Below are positions 13,501-41,660 of a stretch of DNA of 64,000 bases, in pieces. How positions within the stretch are numbered: the first letter of the stretch is position 1; each line of letters opens with the position of its first letter. A program made the translations under genes and the position numbers. Origin of the DNA: Raillietiella orientalis (lineage: Eukaryota). Below the pieces are notes generated by a model that worked only from the letters and a program-made list of their open reading frames with translations, was not told where the DNA came from and did not search any database. The stretch lies in assembly GCA_036172245.1 (NCBI GenBank), contig JAYWIR010000006.1, positions 5,208,001-5,272,000 of the forward strand, written 5' to 3'.

Positions 13501-14517
13501 AAGAGGGTTGAATTGCTTGCAAGATGACTAAAAACAGACTCAAGAAAGGTACCGTGCTCTTCTCTACTCCGTTTGGTGGTGATGAGGTCGCGCGCCGCCC
13601 TACCATCGCGGAAGAGGTGGGGGGATCTCCTCCGCACGCCTTCCTTCCTCTTCCACGGAAAGCCAGCTCAAGGGATGAGCGTCTTCTCTTCATCCCGGTT
13701 TCCTCGCGCCCTCGGCGGGCAAGGGAACGCCACGTTGACGATGCTGTCGGGTCGCCGCGCCACCTCCTCTTTCGGGAAACGGGCATGTGCTTCGCCCGCA
13801 CCCCTTCCCAACGGGTTCCTTATTCCTCGGCTCGCGTCTCCACGCGGCAGCGCTCGGCGCCGCAGGTACATATCGGTCCGTCCCTTGGCGACCGCCGCCG
13901 TTCCCGGGTACGCCACGGCGCTTCCAGGGGACAAGGCGGAGTGGCGCCGCGCGTCGCTGCCGGCTGGAGAGCGGCGGACCGGCGGGTCCCAAATCAGAAA
14001 GCTCGCCATTAGGGGCTTCACCCCATTTCTCCGGTTTCGCGTCGTATGGGAGCTTTCGAGAGATAAGACCGAGGCCGCAGCGGTGGTTCGGTTTCCGTGG
14101 TCGCCGAGCCGTGTCTTTGCGCGCGTTTCGTCGCCCTCGGAAGTTTTTTTTTTTTCCGTTTTCCTTTTTTCTGCTGCTCCTCCAATCCCCCTCCCCCTCC
14201 TTTTCGCGCGGCGATCCTGGCGCATGGCGGCGCCGTCTGGGTTTCGCCAACCGAAGAGAAGCGCCGCTATCGATCGCCGCTGACGTGCGAGCGCGGACCG
14301 CGAAGGGCGCCGCTCTCCAAGAAGAGCGGCGTCGAGACGTCTGCAAGGGAAGCCCGGCAACCCCGGCGCTTCCCCCGCCCCCCTTCCCCCCTGGGGTCCA
14401 GAATCTGGCACTCACTGCTCAAGCCTGTTCCCCCGCGGAATTTCGAATCCCAGCGTGTGTCCAGCAAGAGCGAATTTCGCCAGCATTCACTTAATTTTCA
14501 ATTGCAGGTTCTGAGTA

Positions 14518-14599
14518 ATGTCGGCCATGATCACCATGGAGAGCAATCGTTGCTATCACGTGTCCTCAGATGGAGATCTCTGTGATGATAAACGAAAGC
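14518..14599 (+). CDS. Copy A coding exon 1 ([27 protein letters not shown]+R)
   Basis: Phase-1 donor C|GTAAGG joins the paired box in frame; resembles exon 1 of copy B. Confidence 0.72.
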
Positions 14600-17500
14600 G
14601 TAAGGAAGTAAATGGACCGCTCTTTCGAAGGGTCTCTCGGACGTCTCCTGCTAAAGTCGTGAGGACAACGACGGAGGGGCGCTTTGCGCAGAGTGTAACT
14701 TTTCGACGCACCCTTCATCTTTCCGATGAATGCTGCGTCGAACTGTTGAGTGGAGCCGCCGGTGGACTGAGTGGTCCCGCCGATCGCGAGGAATCCCGAT
14801 CTTTCGATGCTGGTGCTCTTCCGGCATCGCAAGATTCCGGGAGAACGAAACCAAACTGGGAGGGTCGCGTCCTTCGGCCTGCGGAATCCGGCGTGCGCAT
14901 TCCGAAGTTGCTTTCCGACGTGTTCGCAACAATGGGGTGCGCTTAGGCTCGCGTCGCAGGCTCGGCATCCGCCGCCATCTTGCCTTTATGCTTCACCCTC
15001 TTTTATGCAAGAATGCAAGCTGGCGCTGAAACTGAACGCTACCGCCGCCGTCAGCGTCTTGAATGACACGCGCTCCTGCGCCGCCGCCGACGCATCGCTT
15101 CCCCGAACCAGAACCATGCCTCCAGGATAATGCGTTAACAGGACGGTTGTAGTTTGCTGAGTCAGTGAAATTCGGTCCGATCGATATGATTTGATATTCA
15201 AAATACGCTGGGCGCGCGTGTGTTTTCCTCCAATCTATCCCCCTTTCGCCCTCCTCCTCTTCGGAAAAAGGAAAAAAAAAGACTGTGGCAAGGTGCAACC
15301 TAAATCGCGGAAATAGATCAATCACGGCGAAGGAATATAACGTTAGGAAATCATTCAAGCGTACCACTGAAAACTGTCCGTGCCTCCTTCGGTCAATAAA
15401 CCATTGGTGGCAACGGGGGTGAAGCCTCCTAGGGCCTCTTGCCGCAAAAGTGCGGCTACCGAAAAGGTGCGGAAGGAGGAGGGAGCGAAATGGGCGAGGA
15501 ACGTGGCTGGTAGCGGCGCGTCCCCATCCTCCGGCGGGGCTGACCTTTGCCGAGTCGAGGGCGCGAGGAGGACGTCGGCGTGGCTGAGTTTTCCCGGGGC
15601 CGCGTACGCCCGGCAGCGGTGGCGGCGGCGGCTGGGTGACAGCCAACGGGTGGCGCGCTCCTGGTCTTTCGGGCCGCCGCCCGGCGGTCAAGCGCGCGCG
15701 CCGGCCGGAAAGGTGCCGCTGACGTCACGCCGGCTGGCAGGCGGGTCGGTCCCACAGCGCACCGGCGTGCCGTTCGCTCCCGAGCAGCTCCTGCAGCCAC
15801 TGTCCCTTTCAGGACACAGCGGTGTCAACCAGCTAGGGGGTGTTTTCGTAAATGGACGCCCCTTACCTGACGAAATACGTCGACAGATAGTCGACATGTA
15901 TCAGCTAGGGAGTCGCCCGTGCGAAATCAGCCGTGTGCTTAAGGTGTCCCATGGGTGTGTTTCGAAAATCTTGTCTCGGTAAGTCGACCCACCCGCTCGG
16001 CGGTTCGCGACCACCCTCCCCTTTCTTTTTTCTCCTTCCCCAGCTACATCGAAACAGGCAGTTATCATGCCGGTGTCATCGGCGGCAGCAAGCCGAAAGT
16101 AGCAACCCCGAAGGTAGTGACAGCCATCTCGGAATATAAGGGGGTCAACCCCACCATGTTCGCATGGGAAATAAGAGACCGACTGCGAGACGAGGGTATA
16201 TGCACTGAAGATGCTGTACCGAGTGTTTCGAGCATTAATAGGTGAGGCGGGTGGGCCCCTGTCCGCGGGCGCGACGGTGTCACCTTCCCCCAGGATTGTG
16301 AGGAACACTTCCGCTGGTCCGACAGCCGAGAAGAACTGTCGGCGCTCCTTGCGCTCCGCCGGCTCGAGCAGCCGGCAGCAGGCAAGTCTGTCTGGATCCT
16401 CAGCGGGCTCCCCAGGGTCGGCAGCCCCGAAGACAAGGAGATCCACAAGGAAGGGCGCCTTCCCTCGAGGAGACGGCAACGGCCAGCCGGCCGGAGCACT
16501 CCCAGCGCAAGCTCCTCGAGGCTTGATCGAGGCCTCCGAGGTCGCTGCCGGTAGGTCCCCCCTCTCTTCCCTTCCAGCGCAGACCCTGACCTCCGTCTCC
16601 GCAGCTGCCCTCTCAAACGAGGCGGAGGCCGCAGTGGCGTTTGCGCCCTCGGCCGCCACCTCGGGTATCGGAGCACCTCAAGTGCTCCATGCGCAGGAGT
16701 TCCCGAATCCAGCGGGGGAGTCCCAGATGACAGCGGCCGGTCTCGGCTGGTATCAGTGGGCGCAGCTGCAGTCAGGAGTGTCGCCGAATAGCTGCAGTCC
16801 CGTAGAGACTCCGGGCGACACGTGGGGTGCAGGCCCCTCGAACGCCCTACAAGGGATGTTGCACGAGTTACAAAGCAGTCAAGCAAACATCCAGGAGTCT
16901 CTGTACTCTCTGGGACTCCAGGGAGGATATGAGTCAGTGGACTACTCCATGGGCAGCTCACCAGGTAAGAGCGCTCGTGCCAACGGGGCTTACGGAGGCG
17001 GGGAAGCATCCCTTTCGAGTGGGCCATCCCTTCCTACCCCCTACCTTTGGTGCCTGCGGCTGTCTTTTTCTCCTACTCACGAGCCCCTTGAGATCGCTCG
17101 CGGGCGGAGTCCCAGACCATCGGTCGGAGCTGCGTAGTCAAAGGGGGATGGGGGGTGGAGGCGTGGTGAGAAAAAAAATTGGAAGTGAAATGAGAGAGAG
17201 AGGGAGAAAAGGGATGGACCAGCGCGTTGAGTCGCGCGGCTTTCCTGAGCGCACCGCGCAGTCTCGTTCGCGGCTTGCCGCCTTCCGTCGCGGGAGGGGC
17301 GCGTGCGCATGCGCGCGGCGCCCGTCCGCCTCCGCTGCACAGCTGCCGCCTTCCAACTGCGCGCGCTTCGTTCTGGAACGAGCAGGAGGAAGAAGGAAAC
17401 AAAAAGGGCGAAAGGGGGGAAAGAGGACTCTCCTTCCCTGTTTCTCTTCCCTCCCCCTCCTTCCTTCGCTCCCTTTCCGGAGCAGGGATGCCGGAAAAGG

Positions 17501-17869
17501 CGGACGCCAACCGCCTCTGCCGATTGGTGCCCGAGCGAGCGGTCCCCCCAATCAGGTGGCGGGCGCTTCCTTCCCGCTCCCGCCCACTCCTCGAGGCGAG
17601 CCCGTCATCGGCGCGACGGATGAGCCGCCTTCCCGTAGGGCGCGTTAGAGGCCTTCCGTTTCCGGGGCGACCTCACTCCGCCGGCCGCGCGTCTCCGGAG
17701 GGAAACCCTCTAGCCCGTAACTGTCTTTCAGCTCCCCTGCTGGACCAGCAGCCGAGTTGCGTCCCGGCGGACACTCAGCACTCTTATCAACAACAGCTGG
17801 CGGAGCAGCTGTTTTCCACAGTGTACTCTCACGAGCAGCTCTGTGGAGCAGCGACACCATACATACATC

Positions 17870-17902
<33 letters not shown>

Positions 17903-18216
17903 TGCTCTTCCCGGAAGATTCTGCCTCCGACTTGAATGTTGGTACCGGAGCGGCCTACTGGACCGCCGCCAGGCACCAGCAGGAGCACCCTGCTCAGAAT
18001 ATTCATTACCAAGATGAGTATTCAGAAGGAGCCCTGGCCACAGTGGGGCGTTTTCTCGCAGAGGCCTTCGAGGGCTTCCGCGAGGACCCCACCTACAGGG
18101 CCGGCGGCCCCGTGGACTTCTGGGGTCTGCAGACCGCCATGTACGCGCCAACGGCGGCGATACACGAGCCACAGGCAGTCCACCACGTGGCCGGAAATTC
18201 CTATGTCTACAGATGA
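14518..18216 (+). CDS. Pax2/5/8: Divergent Pax2/5/8 paralog (paired domain only), ~515-533 aa (copy A)
   Basis: Exons 14518-14599, 15813-15978, 16044-16241, 16294-16964 (possibly split by a 54-nt intron 16551-16604) and 17732-18216. GT-AG, phase-compatible, no internal stop, AATAAA downstream. Paired domain [126 protein letters not shown], ~80% identical to copy B by hand count. Confidence 0.88.
15813..15978 (+). CDS. Copy A paired box exon 2 (166 nt)
   Basis: tttcag acceptor, GTAAGT donor, intact paired-domain sequence. Confidence 0.96.
16044..16241 (+). CDS. Copy A paired box exon 3 (198 nt)
   Basis: 65-nt upstream intron with strong polypyrimidine tract; donor AG|GTGAGG. Confidence 0.96.
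16294..16964 (+). CDS. Copy A exon 4(/5), Ser/Ala/Gly-rich linker
   Basis: Follows a 52-nt intron; begins RIVRN; open frame to donor CAG|GTAAGA at 16965. Confidence 0.78.
17732..18216 (+). CDS. Copy A terminal exon, polyQ/acidic/Tyr-rich
   Basis: gtaactgtctttcag acceptor in matching phase; APLLDQQ...Q10...NSYVYR-stop; protein-like composition. Confidence 0.78.
17872..17901 (+). repeat. (CAG)10 coding polyglutamine tract
   Basis: Direct count; in frame in the copy A terminal exon. Confidence 0.95.
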
Positions 18217-18335
18217 AGCCGCCCCCTCTTCCCCCGGGAGGCGAATTCCCCTCCTGTTCGCGCACCCCAGGCGCTGGGCTGCGCACGCACTGACCGGGGG
18301 CTGTCCACCTACTGTTAAAAGGGTGACCTGACAGA

Positions 18336-18341
18336 AATAAA
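18336..18341 (+). terminator. Candidate polyadenylation signal of copy A
   Basis: AATAAA 120 nt after the stop codon in GC-rich surroundings. Confidence 0.65.
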
Positions 18342-18609
18342 GCATGCATACAAAAAGTCCACGGGCATTCAAAGGGTCAACGGCCCTTCGCCTCTCACCT
18401 CTTCGCCTCCGAGGGGGCCTCCGCTCCCCGGGGGGCAGCACCTGCGGCGCGGGCCGAGCGGCAGAGGTGCCGCCAACGCCGCCTACCGACGAGATCGCGA
18501 CCCGTCTGTTCGGCGTAGAGGAAGGGGCGAGGGGGAGGAGCGTGGAGCACCCCCTCCCTCGCTCGCTCAGGACCTGTGTTCCCTCACTTCTTTTCGTTTT
18601 CTTCCCTTT

Positions 18610-18615
18610 TTTATT
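18610..18615 (-). terminator. Candidate polyadenylation signal of copy B
   Basis: AATAAA on the minus strand ~450 nt after the stop codon. Confidence 0.5.
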
Positions 18616-19065
18616 CCAGCTTTTGCCGGGAGGTCCCGGTGGGCGGGATCGAAGAGGCGGCGGTCGTGTTGTCCCGGGTACGGCCTCGTCTCGGTGGGCG
18701 AGGAGAGGGAGTGGTCGCGGGATGGAATCCGGGAGCGGCGGACGGGATCTCCCAAGGGGATGACTAGAACTTTCTGGATGAGGGTCCCAGCAGCTGGACG
18801 TTCTTCTTCCTCCCGCCGGCTCCGCGGGGGCAGCTGCCTTCGGGGGGCAGGCCCGAGGGGGGGGGGAATCCTGCTTTGCCACTCCTCCCCTCCTCCCTTC
18901 GTCCTCCCGGCCGGGATGACCACGAGATGAACTGGAAGCCGCGCTGTGGGAGGCCGTCGTCGCAAAAGAGGAAGGGGGGGAACGGGCGGCCCGCTGCTCT
19001 TTTCTCCCCGGCGGGGCCTGCGTCGCTCACCGGGGACGTCTTCGGGGGGCCCACTGTCCTCTTCA

Positions 19066-19163
19066 TCAGCTGAGAGCGAACTGACTCTTGTAGAGGGAGT
19101 TGGGGTAGGCGCCGTAGTTCTGGAACTGGGGGTTGTAGGCGAAGTCCGAAAGCGTGGCGCCAC
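19066..19163 (-). CDS. Pax2/5/8: Copy B terminal coding exon
   Basis: Follows a 61-nt intron; [32 protein letters not shown] then tandem TGA TGA. An internal A|GTCAGT donor to a further exon cannot be excluded. Confidence 0.75.
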
Positions 19164-22100
19164 CTGGGGGGAGAGGCGGGGGCGGGTGTGTCGTTCGCCG
19201 CCGCGCGACCGCGAGACCACGCACCTGCAAAGGAGGTCATGCCCTCCCCTTGCTGCCCTTGCTGCTGCTGGGGCGGCTGCTGCTGCGGGTGGTGGTGGTG
19301 GTGGTGGTGGTACACGTGGTGACCGCCGGGAGTGCCTTCCACGATGTCCTGCATCAGACCAGGAGTGGAGGTGCCGCTCCTTTCGGACTTGTGGTGCGAC
19401 TGGGAGGCTGCGCCGCCGCCACCTCCCCCGCTCAGGAGGGAGATCCCGTCCGACGAGGACGGCGGCGTCTGCAGGCCGCTGTAGCTTCCGCCGCCGCCGC
19501 CGGAGGCGCTGCCGCCGCCGTCTGGAAGTAAGTGCGCCGTGCTCTCGCTGCTTGTCCTACCGGCCCGCCTCAGCCCCCCGTGTACCTTGAGGCACCGGGC
19601 AACGCAAGGGGGAGGGGGAGGATGAGGGAGAGCGGTCGGGATGCGTCTCTCCCTGCGCGATTCCCGTGTACGGAGGGAGAGCGCGCGGAGGAGGGGACGA
19701 GGGCGTTGGAACGCCACCTGGCGCCTCCTCCGCCCCCCACACGTCCGGGGGTGCCACATGCGGCGCAGAATCACGCCGCCCCGCGGCGGTCAGCTTTTCC
19801 TCCCAAAGGGGATGCGCCTTTCCCTCTGCTCGTGAGGGGGCAGCCCAGAGGTTCGGGCCCCGATGATGGAGGGTTCCTCCCCTCATCCCACCTCTCCCTC
19901 CCTCTTGATAATCCATCAGAACACGGTGCAGCTCTCGGTGCCTTCGAGCCAACACAACGCAGCGACGCTGACAGTGACGCGCGCGGCTGCGGAGACTCCC
20001 TTTCCATCTATTGGCGTTTCGTCGTACTAATTCGCGCTCAGCTCCCGCGGTAGTCATTCTGCGGCGAGAACGCCCCGTCGCCTCGGAACTTTGTGCGGAC
20101 GAGAGCTTCCCGGAATCGGTTCCGAATTCGCCCGTGGCCTCAGAGGGACCGCCACGTGAGGAGCCGAAAACGTGGTGCAAACTCCGGAGGATTTTCGGAT
20201 GCTCGTATGTGAGGGCAGCGCTGCTGCTGCGACGCAAGAGGGCGCCAAAAGTCACGCAGACGAGGGCGCTTCGGAACGAAGCTTTAGATTCACGCAGAGT
20301 CGCACGGAGCTCTTCGCGGAGCGCCTGCTCCCACCATCTAACGGCGGTTGACGGCACTGGAGTTCGCGCGCGCCGTTCGTGTTCCGTTCCTGCCTCTTGC
20401 CGCTCCCTCGGCCCATCTCGGAGGAACTCCGGCAGCCCCACAAGGGCACTCCTCCGAGACCTTTGTGTCGTCGGTGGACGCAGCGTGTCAGCTGCCCTTT
20501 GTGCAGGAGCTCCATTCCTCCGGTGGCCTCGGCAAGACGGCGGCTTGTGGGCGGGGCACCTCCGCGAACAATGCGAGAAAGACTGCGGCGGAGACACCGG
20601 CCACACCTGGGCGGTTCCGGCGGAGATGCTGATGACCTACGCGACAGGGCCCTCCGCATGTGCGCGCGCCCGCGGTTCCGGTCCCCTCCCCCCATTCCTT
20701 CCTCCATCACCGACCGCTCCGGAGGTGGTTGGCGCCACCCCCATGATTGGCGCGGGATCAGCGCTACCAGGCACTCACCGTGGTGGTAGTGCTCGTTGAC
20801 CTCCGGGATGCTGAGGGTTGACTTGCCTTCGCTGTGCAGGGGAATCCCGAGGGACGACATCCCGGTCAGGTTGCCTGGAAGTGAGAAACGACCGGTCAGC
20901 GAGTTCGAAGAGGAGGAGGGGGGGAGCATCGCCTGCTTTGTCTCATCCGCACCTCTCCCTTCGCGGGAGGGAGAGGCCCTGAAGACCCCTCCCTCCTAAA
21001 AGGAGGCGCCCTCAGGGCAAGACGCGGTCCACCCTCGCAGGGAAGATGGGCAGGGCAGGCTGCCCCCTCCCGGAAAGGAGACGTGGGGCCGGCCGTCGCG
21101 GAAGGTGGAAGGAGGAGGGGCTCAGCGTACTCTGGACTTACCCAGACCCGAGGCGGCGGCGTACATCCCGTTGGTCATCTGCTGGTTCAGGGTCAGGGGG
21201 TCGTAGACGGAGTCCGGGGAGTTCCCGGCATAACCGAGCTGCCCGTCCGTAGGGTAGCCCGGAAGGGAGTACGCGATTCCCCCGTTGGGGAGGCTCATGG
21301 GGTTGAAGTCGGAGAAGATGATTTTTCCCTCCTCCTTGATGCCCAGCGTTCCCGGAGGCAGCCACTTGGGGTAGAATTCCTGCAAGGGGGGTGGGGGAGG
21401 CGAGCGCCCTCCTGTCGAAAGCGCCGCACCCCGCGGCCGCCGTCGTCACCGTGGCGCTTCCGGCGGCGGCGGCGGAACCGAAAATGGCGTTTCCACGGCC
21501 GTTGCCGGGGAAACGGGCGGGAGAAGGGAACAGGCCCTCCTCCCCGGCCGGCTGCTCTCTCACGAAGCAAGGAAGGCCCTTTGCGGCTACCCCGCTGGAG
21601 GAGTCCCGCCGTCGCCGTAACGACGGTGGGGAAACCAGTCCCGGAGCCTTCCGAGAGCAGGAGGCCGCCGGATGCGCCACGGACGGACGGGCATCTTTCC
21701 ACCAGGGTCTTACCGCCGCGGCCTGGTACAGCTGCTCTCCATTGTAGCCGACTCGCTGCCTCCTGAGAGCGTCGTCCGGGTGATGGCCGCCCATGAAACG
21801 GCCGTCCAGTTCTGAGGGAAAAAGAGGGGGACTGAGTATGGCGGGCGAAAGGGAGGGGAGGAAGTCCAGAGGAAGAGGTTTCGAGGCAATAGGCAACCCC
21901 ACCGCCATTTTTTATGCGTCGCGTTTACAAAACGCTCCTCTAGGTGGTGGGCAGGTCGGCGCGTACGCTGCTGCGGTTCTTTCAGCCTACCCTTCCCCCA
22001 GGGCAGGAAGTAGAAGGATGAGAAGGGACCTCTCCCGCCGAAGAGGGAGCTCGAGGAGCGAGGTACGAAAAGAATGCGATCGGAAACCGTCGGGTTGCGT

Positions 22101-24959
22101 TCACATCGCCGGTGCGACGAAGGAGCAATCTTTCCCGCAGGATTTGTGGGCCTCGCCGGGCACCGAGGGAATGGGAGCTCCATCGGAAATTTCCGCATTT
22201 CGTCCCCAGAGGACGGGTCCCTTCGTCCGAAATCCGATCGAGGAAACCAGAGTGGAGAACGCCCACCTGCCAGAGGGGGGGGGGGGGGATGGGTCCAACG
22301 CATCTGCCAGCGTTCTCTTTCCTGGCGGAATAAACAGAAAGGACCTCCCGCATACGGAGAAAAACCCCGATGCAGGAAGATTTGGCACCTTCGGGACTGC
22401 CTATGCTTCAGTTTCCCCCGTTCCCTCACGGAGACGTTTGGTGTACGGATGAGAGAACTCGTGCCAAAGAAAAGACTCTCGGCGTTGTGAAACGGCGATT
22501 AGTCTTCGTCCGCGCCCTACGCGTCTCTTCCGCGTATCATCACACACGAGGGTGAGAGAAACTTTGGGAGGGACGGACTTGCGGAAGCCATCGACTGAGC
22601 AGCTTTCAAAGAGCGCCCTTCCTCCGGCTGAGAATACGGCAGAGGGGTAGCTCGCGGTTTTCACGGGTCCCTTCCTTCAGCGGACTCTGTCCTCCTCTCT
22701 TCCTCCATCCGATTCCACCGCGGTGGTGTCCTCCGGGCTTCCTCACCAATCTGCCTCGCTCCGCCGCTCACCCATTCTTAACGAGAGTTCTCGAGGAATT
22801 CATCAGAAAAAGGGAGAGTAAGGAGGATGTAAGGGAATATTTCTCGAGGGTCGGAGAAGGAGCGATTTCGAAAGCAGGATTCCAACAATGGATTCGCAAA
22901 AGTGCAACAATCGTCTCCCGTAATCGCAACAATGCACGCGATGCGGACTAACAATGAACCTTTGGGAGAGCAACAATGCACGCGATGCGGACTAACAATG
23001 AACCTTTGGGAGAGCAACAATGCACGCGATGCGGACTAACAATGAACCTTTGGGAGAGCAACAATGCACGCGATGTGGTCTAAGAAGGACGCGTCTAAGG
23101 AAGCCGAAGCAGCGGCATACGTGCTCGTTTGGTCATCGCCGTGGTCACTTCCTTTTCAAGGTTACTGCAGAAGGAGCGAAGCGGAGGATGCGAACGCGAG
23201 GAGGGAAAGAGCCACAGGGAAGAGAGCCGTTCTTCATTACCTTCCTCGCGCTTCCTTTTGCTGATGCCGGGATCGTGGTGGGAGATGCCGAGGATGCCGT
23301 TGATGCTGTAGGATCCCGTCCTGTGGAGGTGGCTCAGAGGCGATTCGCTCCCGGGGATCGAAGACACCATCCCTGCGTGGGTAATGACCGATGTGGCGTT
23401 CGAAATGGGGCTTGCGGGTGCACCCATCGGGGCATGCCGCGCCTTCTCTGCGGCCTTGTTGCGAACGATCCTGAAACGATTCGATTTCGTTCACGCCTGA
23501 AAGAGGAAATGCCATCCGGGGCTCCCGCACTTGCGAACGGAAACGTGCGAGCAAGCAGGAGGGGGGAGGATGAGAGCAGTGCGCGTTCTTCCAGGGAAAC
23601 GGAGAAGGGGGGGGAGGAGGAAGAGAGAGAGGGGAGGGAGAACTTTTCAGTCCACTGGGCCGTCGAGCTCGCGGTTTGCCTGCGTCCGGTGTGCAGATCC
23701 CCGCTCGAGGCTCCACATCGACCCCGGGTTGATGCATGCCAACTCGAGGTCGACGGATCTGGTGGGTACGGGGAGTGACCCGGATCGGGAAGGAACGGCG
23801 ACTTTTTTGGACGGAGTCCCAGAGGAAGAGAGGAGAAGAGGGGGAGGAGGTTTGAAGAGGAATTCTGGCTCCCCCCTGAAGGAGGAGCGAGCGAGATGAT
23901 CCTCGCCACGTCCTTCCGAGGAAACGTTCAGCTTCGGAGGCGGACCATGACGCGCTCCGCGCTGCTTCCCTTCCCCCCTTTTCGCGTTGGGACTTTCCTG
24001 TTCGGCGCTCGGCCGGCTCAGCGTTCCTCACGAACGGCAAGGCCGAACTGCCGGGAGGAGAGGAGAAAAAAAAAAGAGGAAGAACGCTTTTCTCACCTGT
24101 TGATGCTGGATACGCTGGGAACGGTGTCCTGGGAGCAGACCCCCTCGGCGAGCAGCCGGTCCCGGATCTCCCAGGCGAACATGGTGGGGTTCTCCCTCTT
24201 ATAGTCGGCGATCGCGTCCACCACTTTGGGAGTGGCCACCTTGGGCTTGCTGCCTCCGATGACCCCGGCCTTGTAGCTGCCCGTCTCGTAGTACCTGAAA
24301 GCGATCTCCGCGGGTCACCGTGAAGAGGGGGAGTGAGCAGGCTAGGAAGGGGGGAGAGGGGGAGGAATAGAAGGAGGAGGGAAGCGAGGAAGGGGAAGCC
24401 GTCCCTCTTCCTTCCGCAGCAAGCTCCGATACCCGGGGGCTGGGAAGAGCGATCCCGAGGGAACACGCGAGAGGAGGAAGCTGACGGAGGGCTTGGGATG
24501 TGGTCCCGCCCAAGGTGCTCCTTGCGATCGCGCGGGGGCTCCCGCACTTCGGCTGCGAACCGCACTCGCGGATGGAGAGAGACGCGTTGCCGGGGGCAAC
24601 CAGAGGTGGCGGGCGTCTAAAGAGCAGGGTTGCGCAAGCCCGTGTGGTGGTGCTGGACGGCCGTGTCCTCCTCCGTCCTTGCCGCCGTTCCTCCACCACT
24701 TCCTCGTTGCCTCGGAGGGGTAGGAGGGAGATAGGGGAGGGAGGAAGGGGAGGAGTACCTGCTGAGTATCTTGGAGACGCAGCCGTGGGACACCCGTAGC
24801 TGCCGGCTGATGTCGCACGGGCGGACGCCGCTCTGCGCCAACTCGACAATCCTCGCCCTCACCAGGTCGGGCAGGGGGCGCCCATTGACGAAGACGCCTC
24901 CCAGCTGGTTGACTCCTCCGTGACCTGCAACGGAAACGCGTCCAGCTTGCGGAGACGTG

Positions 24960-24994
<35 letters not shown>

Positions 24995-26333
24995 CGGCCT
25001 CTCCGATCCCCGAGGCGCCTTGCCCCCTGACGGGGCCAGGCGCTACGGAGGCTCATCTCTGCCTCGCCCCCACCAACCCCCTCCTATCAGCCGTGGGCGA
25101 CCTCCCCATCCCTTCCACCCTCCTCTCACCCTCAAGTTTCGTGGGGTGGGTTCTGACTCGCCGCCGCCTCCAGGCGACGGGGTGGGGAAGAAAAGGGAAG
25201 GAGTGGATGGAAAGTGGGGGAGGAGAGGAGGAGAAACAGCAGCAGCCGAGCCGGCCGGCTTCTCCCCTTCCCCCTCCCGAGGGGCTTCCGCGACAGGATA
25301 AGCGGCGAAAAGGAGCGGCGGGAACCAGATAAGTGCGCGAGATGATGGGCAGATGGCACTGCCTGCCGTGCGCGCGCGTCCCCTCCCCGTCCGCGCGTAC
25401 GGCGGGCTCCCGACGGGGAGGGGGAGGAGGAGGAAGCGGAAAAAAAAAGATAAAAAAAAAAAAAAAAAAAAAACGGAGGAAAGAAAAGAGGAGGAGGGGG
25501 AGAGGGAGGAAGCGTCGCCTCGGGGCTCGAGGAGAGAAAGGTTTCCCGGGGACGTCAGGAAGCGGTAATTGCAGGGAGGAGGAGGAACAGGAAGCCACGG
25601 CGGCGGCGGCGCTCCAGAGGAGGGGAAGGGGGGGGGGGAGAGGGTCGGAGGAGGACGGGAGAGAAAGTCAGGCCGGTCAGCGTTCTCCCGGGGGGAAGGG
25701 AGCAGGGAAAGGCCTGCGCCATCGCCCGGGCTACGCGCACGCGTCGCCGGCCGGAAGGTGGTCATCAGCGCCGCCGCCTCGCGGGGAAGGAACGACAGGA
25801 AGTGCGCGCCAGGAGGAGGCGAAAGCGTCCGCCCCTTCTCCTTCCCGAGAAGGGGAGGGGAGAGGGGAGGGAGGAAGGCGTACGGGAAGGACCCACCGCC
25901 TCGTGGGAAGGGAGGGAAGCTCCTCCCCCTCCTGGTTGACGAAGGCTTCGGGAGCTGACTGGGAAGAGCCGACTCGGGGCACCCCCGAGGGGCTCCCTCG
26001 TTCCGCCAGGATTCCTCTAGGAGCGCCCTTGGAGATCCTCCCCCTTGTTCCCTCCCTCTGTCGGCTGCCGTTCATCGGGAGCGGGAAGTGCGCGACGCGC
26101 CTCTCCTTCAGGAAAGCCTCCTTGCTCCCAAGGTCACGTCAACGGATGGAAGTGCACGGGAGTGGGCCCTCGTTCCTGCCGTCTCTGCCCCGTCTTTGGA
26201 CCCCGGAGCCAGCAGCCCTTTCCCCTCCCGCGCCCGACCCTTTCTCACGTTTCTTCTTGGGCTCCATGTGTGCGTGGAGGGCGTGGCCCACGGCGTGGTG
26301 ATCCGTCGGATGTGACATCTCCATGGTCACCAT
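19066..26333 (-). CDS. Pax2/5/8: Canonical Pax2/5/8 (shaven/sparkling-like) transcription factor, 9 coding exons, 501 aa (copy B)
   Basis: Exons 26333-26249, 24924-24759, 24294-24097, 23470-23241, 21811-21714, 21379-21142, 20874-20779, 19521-19225, 19163-19066. All introns are GT-AG and phase-compatible; total 1506 nt. Paired domain [126 protein letters not shown] (Q42/R44/H47), octapeptide [21 protein letters not shown] partial homeodomain, Tyr-rich C-terminus. Exons 2-4 are near certain; the later exons are somewhat less so. Confidence 0.92.
19225..19521 (-). CDS. Pax2/5/8: Copy B exon 8 (Gly/His/Gln-rich)
   Basis: ttccag acceptor; [14 protein letters not shown]...[17 protein letters not shown]...MTSFA; donor CAG|GTGCGT. 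Confidence 0.8.
20779..20874 (-). CDS. Pax2/5/8: Copy B exon 7 (96 nt, symmetric phase 1)
   Basis: ttccag acceptor with ctgac branch candidate; [32 protein letters not shown]; donor G|GTGAGT. Confidence 0.75.
21142..21379 (-). CDS. Pax2/5/8: Copy B exon 6
   Basis: ttgcag acceptor; [19 protein letters not shown]...MYAAASGL; donor G|GTAAGT; C-ending codon bias. Confidence 0.85.
21714..21811 (-). CDS. Pax2/5/8: Copy B exon 5, partial homeodomain-like motif
   Basis: Polypyrimidine plus cctcag acceptor; [33 protein letters not shown]; donor GTAAGA. Confidence 0.85.
22884..23085. repeat. Intronic tandem array: 22-bp-phased AACAAT motif with a 44-bp higher-order unit (x3.5)
   Basis: Unit CAACAATGCACGCGATGCGGACTAACAATGAACCTTTGGGAGAG at 22927, 22971, 23015 and partially at 23059. 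Confidence 0.95.
23241..23470 (-). CDS. Pax2/5/8: Copy B exon 4 with octapeptide (YSINGILG, 23310-23287)
   Basis: tttcag acceptor; [10 protein letters not shown]...[25 protein letters not shown]; donor AAG|GTAATG. Confidence 0.93.
24097..24294 (-). CDS. Pax2/5/8: Copy B exon 3, paired box C-terminal half (198 nt)
   Basis: tttcag acceptor; [18 protein letters not shown]...VPSVSSINR; donor AG|GTGAGA. Confidence 0.97.
24759..24924 (-). CDS. Pax2/5/8: Copy B exon 2, paired box N-terminal half (166 nt)
   Basis: ttgcag acceptor; HGGVNQLGG...VSKILSR; donor AG|GTAC; same length as the copy A exon. Confidence 0.97.
24963..24992 (+). repeat. (CAG)10 microsatellite in intron 1 of copy B
   Basis: Direct count; reads (CUG)10 in the pre-mRNA, ~40 nt before the exon 2 acceptor. 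Confidence 0.95.
26249..26333 (-). CDS. Pax2/5/8: Copy B coding exon 1 ([28 protein letters not shown]+R)
   Basis: ATG at 26333; phase-1 donor C|GTGAGA joins exon 2 in frame; similar to exon 1 of copy A (MITME...KRKR). Confidence 0.8.
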
Positions 26334-40949: not shown

Positions 40950-41660
40950 TGAAATGAAAATACAATTAAAGAAGGTAGAAGTGAGAGTGAGAAGGCCCTC
41001 CCCCCCCAAAAAACTGTAGACAGAACCACATGAACCTCAAGGTAAAAAAAAAAAGGATGGTGGAGTTGAATTAATCTGAAGTGAAATAAAAATAATATTC
41101 GACAAATAAAATAAGGCAGAGACCTAATAAGGCAAAGGTAAACCAAGATAACGATAAACCAAAATAATGCTAGCGCGAGGTAAGGATGAGAAAAAGTAAC
41201 ATAATAGCAGAATAGGATAAAATCGAAGTGAGGCAAACCATGGAGCAAAGTAAAACTAGCGCGAAGTGAGGAGTGAGTGAAACAACAATGAAGCAAGGTA
41301 AAAATAGCGCGGAATGAGTTGGGAATGAGACAACAATGAAGCAAGTTAAAAATAGCGCGGAATGAGTTGGGAATGAGACAACAATGAAGCGAAGTAAAAA
41401 TAGCGCGGAATGATGAGGGAATGAGACAACAATGAAGCAAGACAAAGAATAGCATGGACTAAAAATAAAAGGCACTAACGTAGGCTGAGAATGAAGCAAG
41501 GTAGAGGCAAAAATAAAGGAAAATAAAATCGGAAGGAAACAAAATTAAATTAAAATCAAATTAAAAGATGATGAGAAGAAAAAAGAAAGAAGATACAATG
41601 AAGTACAATGAAGATAAAGTAAGATAATGATAAAACCGAGAATAAGATGGTCAATTCTTC
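40950..41660. other. A-rich low-GC island
   Basis: Abrupt composition shift to strand-asymmetric A-rich sequence. Confidence 0.85.
41230..41460. repeat. 48-bp minisatellite, ~4.5 copies
   Basis: CAACAATGAAGC recurs at 41283, 41331, 41379 and 41427. Confidence 0.9.

Follow-up and report, generated by a model that had tools for sequence, protein, structure and literature searches.

A tail-to-tail pair of Pax2/5/8 genes in Raillietiella orientalis, one conserved and one strongly diverged

We examined two paired-box genes in a 64-kb stretch of the Raillietiella orientalis genome (contig JAYWIR010000006.1, positions 5,208,001 to 5,272,000), hereafter referred to as the window, which an earlier sequence-only reading had described as a tail-to-tail Pax2/5/8 pair with a fast-evolved copy A on the plus strand and a conserved copy B on the minus strand. 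The window contains no N, and its guanine-plus-cytosine (GC) content is about 0.58-0.73 across most 2-kb bins. A stop-to-stop listing of open reading frames (ORFs) revealed paired-domain peptides on both strands, and the exon ORFs of the PAI and RED subdomains of each gene matched the Pfam family PAX (PF00292; E-values given with the exons below), together covering profile positions 1-122 of 125 in each gene. Five further ORFs in the downstream parts of both genes were without any Pfam family match. A tblastn search with eight Pax proteins against the window returned paired-box matches at the copy A and copy B loci only. The modelled features of the pair are as follows.

14518..14599, plus strand: copy A exon 1, 82 nt; starts with ATG, encodes MITME ... 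KRKR and ends in phase 1; in-frame stop just upstream, donor GTAAGG
15813..15978, plus strand: copy A exon 2, 166 nt; PAI subdomain (Pfam PAX, 1.8e-25)
16044..16241, plus strand: copy A exon 3, 198 nt; linker and RED subdomain (Pfam PAX, 1.2e-27)
16294..16964, plus strand: copy A exon 4, 671 nt; starts with IVRN, followed by A/S/G/Q-rich orphan sequence
17732..18216, plus strand: copy A exon 5, 485 nt including the stop at 18214-18216; run of ten glutamines, orphan C-terminus
18336..18341, plus strand: AATAAA, likely polyadenylation signal of copy A, 120 nt downstream of its stop
26249..26333, minus strand: copy B exon 1, 85 nt; MVTMEM ... KKKR
24759..24924, minus strand: copy B exon 2, 166 nt; PAI subdomain (Pfam PAX, 8.9e-32)
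24097..24294, minus strand: copy B exon 3, 198 nt; linker and RED subdomain (Pfam PAX, 7e-34)
23241..23470, minus strand: copy B exon 4, 230 nt; bears the octapeptide
21714..21811, minus strand: copy B exon 5, 98 nt; 12-residue remnant of the partial homeodomain
21142..21379, minus strand: copy B exon 6, 238 nt; reading through its donor leads to a stop nine codons later
20779..20874, minus strand: copy B exon 7, 96 nt; heuristic, from chain enumeration; aligns to the LTPLTP region of the arthropod proteins P0171 and P0019
19066..19163, minus strand: copy B exon 8, 98 nt including the stop at 19066-19068; 12-residue C-terminal motif, AG acceptor after a C-rich tract
18610..18615, minus strand: AATAAA, likely polyadenylation signal of copy B, 451 nt downstream of its modelled stop

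The claim that two intact paired-box genes converge here was borne out, intact being meant of open frames and splice sites only. Copy A consists of five exons with a coding length of 1602 nt (533 open codons and a stop), separated by introns of 1213, 65, 52, and 767 nt whose eight splice junctions are all canonical GT-AG with pyrimidine tracts. The best model of copy B has eight exons and 402 codons with canonical junctions; exons 1-6 were placed by homology and splice sites, and the 3' end is a heuristic model, the best-scoring of 398 enumerated stop-free exon chains leading from exon 6 to the stop at 19066-19068. Exons 7 and 8 show a joint GC content at third codon positions (GC3) of 0.88, as in the other copy B exons, and the motif in exon 8 aligns with the C-terminal motif of arthropod Pax2 proteins. 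The structural correspondences noted earlier were all recovered: 166- and 198-nt paired exons are common to both genes, the intron phases run 1, 2, 2, then 1 in each, with all modelled junctions GT-AG and preceded by a pyrimidine tract, the first exons (82 and 85 nt) are homologous, both having M[IV]TME close to the N-terminus and K[KR]KR immediately ahead of the paired domain, and the 11-residue linker TGSY(K/H)AGVIGG was identified in each copy. The reported distance of 850 bp between the two stops holds if the last exon of copy B is 19163-19066; in the alternative ending, in which exon 6 is read through its donor, copy B would stop near 21115, about 2.9 kb from the stop of copy A. Four AATAAA matches were found between 13.5 and 27.5 kb, two of them within the 850-bp gap. 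The introns within the paired box are tiny in copy A (65 and 52 nt) compared with those of copy B (464 and 626 nt).

Copy B was assigned with little ambiguity. Among the best 120 of 4839 significant matches (4942 candidates), its RED exon reaches 91-94% identity with arthropod Pax2/5/8 proteins, the highest value within these 120 (94%) belonging to a stomatopod protein. The protein carries the octapeptide YSINGILG at residue 204, and exon 5 encodes a stretch that fits the insect Pax2 motif HP[ED]DD.KRQR.QYNG[DE]QLY, which would correspond to the N-terminal arm and first helix of the homeodomain. The whole protein, C-terminal motif included, is colinear with P0171, P0158, and P0019 of arthropods, and it shows all shaven-type features outside the paired domain (the first-exon motif and the C-terminal [DE][YF].Y..P.[YF].Q[YN]). 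Arthropod Pax genes have been divided into six groups, with YSINGILG as the octapeptide of Sv and with group II defined by a paired domain, an octapeptide, and a partial homeodomain (PMC12486386). Copy B thus resembles shaven (sv, D-Pax2) throughout, in RED identity, octapeptide, homeodomain remnant, and C-terminal motif, and on these features it is the ordinary arthropod-type Pax2/5/8 (shaven) gene of the lineage. The same features mark the source of the DNA as an arthropod, most likely a pancrustacean. An extra RED exon, as present in crustacean gene models, was not found in the 464-nt intron 2 of copy B. Two repeats lie in its introns: a 44-bp tandem repeat in intron 4 (22926-23083; 3.6 copies, 98% match) and a perfect (AGC)11, read on the plus strand, in intron 1 just upstream of exon 2 (24961-24993).

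The paired domain of copy A probably also belongs to the Pax2/5/8 class, mainly by its RED half. The top matches of the RED exon are only Pax2/5/8-type proteins, at 78-80% identity among the best 120 of 3448 significant matches (3458 candidates), and since nothing exceeds this level, copy A has no close orthologue in that protein collection. Against solved structures, the RED exon clearly favours Pax-8 (95.7 bits) and Pax5 (93.2) over Pax6 (79.7) and Prd (71.7). The 166/198-nt exon pair occurs in an unrelated arthropod metagenome contig (L011) too and is thus a class feature, which argues for class membership and not for a recent duplication. The paired exons of human PAX2 are presumably exactly 166 and 198 bp. 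In chordate Pax2/5/8 genes, the N-terminal paired subdomain lies on exon 2 and the C-terminal one on exon 3, and Pax6 uses exons of 131 and 216 bp (PMC4488758); an intron position within the paired domain is described as fully conserved (PMC2532684).

Phylogenetic analysis placed both genes in Pax2/5/8. All 305 fetched proteins, together with A and B, had paired-domain matches, and 146 of these 307 sequences with one full-length domain yielded 59 distinct rows of 126 columns. For the main tree, 12 rows were dropped (nine near-duplicates, two insect rows whose ends were incomplete, and one very long row from Plectus) and 18 segments were added (Pax-9-type, Pax-6-type, and Poxn-like sequences, crustacean exon variants, and one stomatopod), giving 65 rows. 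The outgroups named in the source are Pax-9 (Alligator) and Pax-6 (Myotis), the labels 'Poxn-like' and 'Pax1/9-like' being our own reading of the sequences; the trees were built without Pax3/7 and eyg-type domains. In the careful 65-row tree (LG+C20 with posterior mean site frequencies, PMSF), the Pax2/5/8 clade including copy A received support of 97/96, and an arthropod clade of 22 rows with copy B inside it received 92/92. The class assignment of both copies, as proposed earlier, was therefore supported, clearly so for B and as probable for A, and a grouping of copy A with another class was not obtained, Pax3/7 and eyg lying outside the tree.

Within the class, the earlier proposal that A is the sister of B was recovered with moderate support, at 89/72 in the careful 65-row tree and 89/76 in the careful 59-row tree, and quick trees joined A and B at 82 when nematodes were left out and at 80 on RED columns alone. 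Characters outside the tree model point the same way. A and B have S54, Y62, and A64 in common, where the Pax2/5/8 rows of a brachiopod, a snail, and a marsupial differ; Q30 unites A and B relative to all six other outgroups but is also found in nematodes. The first-exon pattern M[IV][TS]ME...K[KR]KR is present in A, B, P0171, P0164, and the beetle protein P0118, and was not seen in the nematode, mollusc, brachiopod, and vertebrate N-termini listed. S54, Y62, and A64 together with the M[IV]TME...K[KR]KR first exon indicate that copy A derives from an arthropod-type gene, and with its adjacency to B this descent is the best reading of the data.

Several results weigh against this placement. The bootstrap of the 65-row tree stopped short of settling (correlation 0.976), and the quick tree of the same rows left A without a fixed position at the base of the Pax2/5/8 class. 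The PAI exon does not discriminate among classes (Pax6 81.3 bits, Pax5 80.0, Pax-8 76.5, Prd 71.2), and a quick tree of PAI columns alone put A together with P0228 (82) inside the Caenorhabditis group (88). In the approximately unbiased (AU) test, holding A with the 15 nematode rows lowered the log-likelihood by 9.60 (p = 0.083) and holding it with the 16 outgroup rows lowered it by 7.26 (p = 0.199), so that neither alternative to the sister relationship was rejected. Counts of unique changes with EGL-38 as the outgroup are also much less one-sided (A 9, B 5) than those with other outgroups given below.

The outgroup-side alternative would make copy A a member or founder of a separate Pax class at the base of Pax2/5/8 and not a duplicate of an arthropod shaven-type gene. 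The AU value of 0.199, the position of A in the quick 65-row tree, and the slightly better score of its PAI exon on Pax6 than on Pax5 all agree with such an origin, whereas the 97/96 clade that includes A (in a tree without Pax3/7 and eyg-type references), the clear preference of the RED exon for Pax-8 and Pax5, and the class exon structure, arthropod linker, and first-exon motif of a gene that directly adjoins a Pax2/5/8 gene do not. We consider it very unlikely.

The resemblance to nematodes concerns the PAI half. The highest identities of the copy A PAI exon, 83-85%, are to Caenorhabditis PAX-2/EGL-38-type proteins and to the long-branch protein P0228 (120 listed of 4710 significant matches; 4716 candidates), and A shares Q24, M28, K43, I107, and E110 with EGL-38 against B. 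I21, D27, M28, Q30, and K43, and partly E20 and Q24, recur in copy A (15815-15976), in the Caenorhabditis PAX-2/EGL-38 proteins (P0195-P0201), and in P0228. The nematode-like PAI exon does not stem from contamination or misassembly, given the absence of N from the window and the similar intron GC contents of A (0.62) and B (0.64). The PAI identities, the shared states, the PAI-only tree, and the AU value of 0.083 would be expected if copy A were a pre-arthropod Pax2/5/8 paralogue, dating back at least to the ecdysozoan stem and orthologous to nematode EGL-38/PAX-2-type genes, with its arthropod-like linker and first exon retained from the ancestor or acquired by old gene conversion with B. However, the full-domain careful tree puts A with B (89/72) in the arthropod clade (92/92), and the tree of RED columns alone also joins the two. 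Copy A has S54, Y62, A64, and the arthropod first-exon motif, all of which the listed nematode proteins lack, while the nematode proteins keep an octapeptide-like YSINGLLG that A lacks. The shared PAI states are conservative exchanges (V/I, E/D, L/M, R/K) that recur in the unrelated long-branch P0228, as they would under convergence, and an ancient origin would require many independent losses in other arthropods. Taken together, we hold an orthologue of the nematode genes to be improbable, and the nematode-like PAI states of copy A (V21I, R24Q, E27D, L28M, and R43K) probably reflect convergence at tolerant sites; a shared shift of the PAI surface may be an alternative explanation of the recurring substitutions. 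In its strongest form, which we regard as very improbable, copy A would be the survivor of an ancient ecdysozoan Pax2/5/8 duplication whose other descendants are nematode EGL-38/PAX-2. Arthropod shaven would in that case be a paralogue of nematode egl-38 and not its orthologue, and the R. orientalis genome would be the first seen with both types side by side.

Returning to copy A as an old duplicate of an arthropod-type gene, we compared the rates at which the two paired domains have changed. Tajima-type counts of changes unique to A and to B were 21:1 with an insect outgroup (p about 1e-5), 16:2, 16:1, 19:2, and 19:1 with four other Pax2/5/8 outgroups, and 11:2 with Pax-6. In the careful 65-row tree, A ends on a terminal branch of 0.75 and B on one of 0, a length that B also has in the careful 59-row tree. 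The strongly asymmetric evolution proposed for the pair was thus confirmed. Despite this divergence, the paired boxes of A and B retain 96 of 122 identical residues and 253 of 366 identical nucleotides, with 40% identity at third positions, a saturated proportion of synonymous differences (pS = 0.785), and a nonsynonymous divergence (dN) of 0.176. Of 48 four-fold sites, 16 carry the same base in both genes, where the two compositions predict a fraction of 0.279. Of the 126 paired-domain columns, 50 do not vary among the 64 other Pax rows, and copy A keeps every one of these; over all 126 columns, nine of the 27 differences between A and B are states found in no other row. The 50 invariant columns kept in the presence of saturated synonymous sites point to purifying selection on the paired domain of copy A.

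The duplication itself has left few traces in the DNA. Apart from low-complexity runs, inverted similarity between the two loci is restricted to exon 3 (73% over 206 nt) and a portion of exon 2 (78% over 69 nt), and no non-coding similarity is left. With synonymous sites saturated and inverted similarity confined to coding exons, the A/B split is ancient and its mechanism is not readable from the DNA. The local inverted duplication suggested earlier was therefore not demonstrated: copy A is probably an old Pax2/5/8 duplicate beside B, but two coding exons do not reveal an inversion event. Thirteen metagenome loci with an exon 4 like that of copy B (36-58% identity) showed no second paired box; these loci are mostly short, with only L009 and L011 above 10 kb.

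Outside the paired domain, copy A has little in common with B. No octapeptide and no remnant of the partial homeodomain were found in its protein model or in the three forward frames of the locus (14000-18400 for the octapeptide). After IVRN, the protein is rich in A, S, Q, and G and belongs to no Pfam family, with a run of ten glutamines in exon 5 encoded by a perfect (CAG)10 at 17872-17902. The part beyond the paired domain showed no similarity to full-length arthropod Pax2 proteins, and comparison of the C-terminal part with the downstream exons of B gave a best E-value of 0.024 on low-complexity stretches, which we treat as noise. Two short strings, YSLGLQG as a degenerate octapeptide and VDYSMG as a remnant of the C-terminal motif, were considered and are too weak to claim. 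For the last exon, one weak match (E = 5.3e-4, 32% identity) was obtained among 1.84 billion representative proteins, none of 593 pattern matches in metagenome contigs was confirmed, and an Atlas look-alike search reached 0.78 on an androgen-receptor fragment cluster, below lead level. Relative to shaven, copy A is alike in its first-exon motif, its paired domain with the arthropod linker, its continuation into IVRN, and its 166/198-nt exons, and is unlike it in the absence of the octapeptide and the homeodomain remnant, in 380 residues without a match, and in 21 private paired-domain substitutions. With only the first-exon motif and IVRN in place outside the paired domain, copy A would not count as an orthologue of shaven in the sense of colinearity.

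Such losses raise the question of whether copy A is a non-functional or barely expressed relic whose open frame survived by chance in GC-rich DNA. The GC3 of copy A (0.65 overall, 0.54 in the paired box) equals its intron GC, which leaves it without codon bias, as would be the case in a gene with weak expression or under drift; the GC3 of copy B is 0.85. Exon 4 has a weak codon periodicity (GC by position 0.62/0.63/0.69), and long open frames arise by chance in the 63% GC DNA of the window, where stop-free frames of at least 300 codons occur on several non-coding frames. The missing octapeptide and homeodomain remnant and the orphan C-terminus would equally fit a relic. The weak periodicity of exon 4 and the chance open frames put the C-terminal 380 residues on less certain ground than the paired domain. 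Within the copy A model, exon 4 is the weakest element, and the coding status of its parts is the least certain. On the other hand, since synonymous sites are saturated, neutral drift of the paired box would not have left 96 of 122 residues identical to B or all 50 invariant columns in place. The 65- and 52-nt introns keep canonical GT-AG ends, exon 5 has a clear coding periodicity (0.70/0.42/0.71), and a polyadenylation signal follows the stop. We therefore judge a relic to be unlikely.

In our view, copy A is quite probably an old, constrained duplicate of an arthropod-derived Pax2/5/8 gene with a changed cofactor logic. Its origin would lie in a very old duplication of an arthropod-type Pax2/5/8 gene, with B itself as the most likely parent, beside which it probably arose locally and stayed in tail-to-tail orientation. 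Its amino-acid sequence has changed about twenty times faster than that of B. Given a complete paired domain under purifying selection, the protein most probably retains DNA binding to Pax2/5/8-like sites. In Pax5, Groucho-family corepressors are bound by the octapeptide, which functions mainly in repression, and the partial homeodomain has a share in activation (PMC10509461); a role of the octapeptide in corepressor binding or repression is also stated in PMC2532684. With both elements lost and an orphan A/S/Q-rich C-terminus in their place, copy A has likely become a paired-domain-only transcription factor with similar or slightly shifted target sites and with cofactors unlike those of B, acting either as a Groucho-independent regulator or as a competitor of B. 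The neofunctionalisation considered earlier for copy A, in which a developmental regulator would acquire a different role after duplication, is plausible but unproven.

Pax2/5/8 genes pattern sense organs, the nervous system, and excretory organs across animals, and the duplications that they underwent independently in vertebrates, urochordates, Caenorhabditis, and spiders serve as textbook examples of regulators that divide or change roles once duplicated. Asymmetric Pax2/5/8 duplicates are known in several lineages, and the R. orientalis pair adds an unusually divergent example to this known kind of system. It represents a compact and extreme case in which B is frozen (a paired-domain terminal branch of 0) and A has changed about one fifth of its paired domain and all of the remaining protein, yet has kept every universally invariant residue. 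If copy A is expressed, it would offer a natural experiment on a paired domain without octapeptide and partial homeodomain. The PAI substitutions that recur in A, in nematodes, and in the lineage of P0228 could mean either that few changes are permitted at these sites or that a DNA-reading surface has shifted in common. No description of a tail-to-tail arthropod Pax2/5/8 pair was found in the literature searched, where the string 'Pax2/5/8' could not be matched as written.

Besides shaven, three known systems are closest to the pair. The urochordate genes Pax2/5/8a and Pax2/5/8b are lineage-specific duplicates, and the b copy is described as lacking an octapeptide at the expected position while its paired domain is conserved (PMC2532684). 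Copy A likewise lacks the octapeptide and keeps the paired domain after what would be an independent duplication, and the absence of the motif in Pax2/5/8b means that its absence in A does not exclude Pax2/5/8 descent. In contrast to copy A, which belongs to another phylum, the urochordate duplicates have documented expression and subfunctionalisation (PMC2532684), and the ascidian b protein has an 'octapeptide-like' motif nearer its C-terminus, of which no counterpart was found in A. Caenorhabditis egl-38 and pax-2 are fast-evolving like copy A, and their PAI identity to it (83-85%) is above that of any arthropod protein listed; the nematode proteins differ in having G54, V62, and P64, another N-terminus, and YSINGLLG, and they stand apart from A in the full-domain tree. 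The spider genes Pax2.1 and Pax2.2 (Janeschik et al. 2022) are cited as neo- and subfunctionalised (PMC12239259) and, likened to the present pair by description, they too are two Pax2 paralogues within an arthropod lineage.

The comparison with crustaceans brought a separate observation. Gene models from the decapods Petrolisthes, Portunus, and Procambarus and from the barnacle Amphibalanus (P0001, P0003, P0004, and P0005) contain two successive RED exons after a single PAI exon. The two exon types read GS[IV]RPG and GS[YF]KAG, and they (3a and 3b) separate in the careful tree (93/88 and 97/95). This looks like a conserved tandem exon duplication, possibly of mutually exclusive exons that were included twice by gene predictors.

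We also surveyed the remainder of the window. Rfam and transfer RNA scans of the 64 kb gave no match, and among ORFs of at least 70 codons outside the Pax pair none combined a codon periodicity like that of copy B with a recognisable protein. The pair thus seems to be set in a gene-poor stretch, although genes made of small exons would escape this screen. Between 38000 and 42000, the GC content falls to 0.48-0.54, compared with about 0.63 elsewhere in the window, and a 48-bp tandem repeat (41236-41453; 4.5 copies, 86%) lies there, with AATAAA matches clustered at 41-42 kb.

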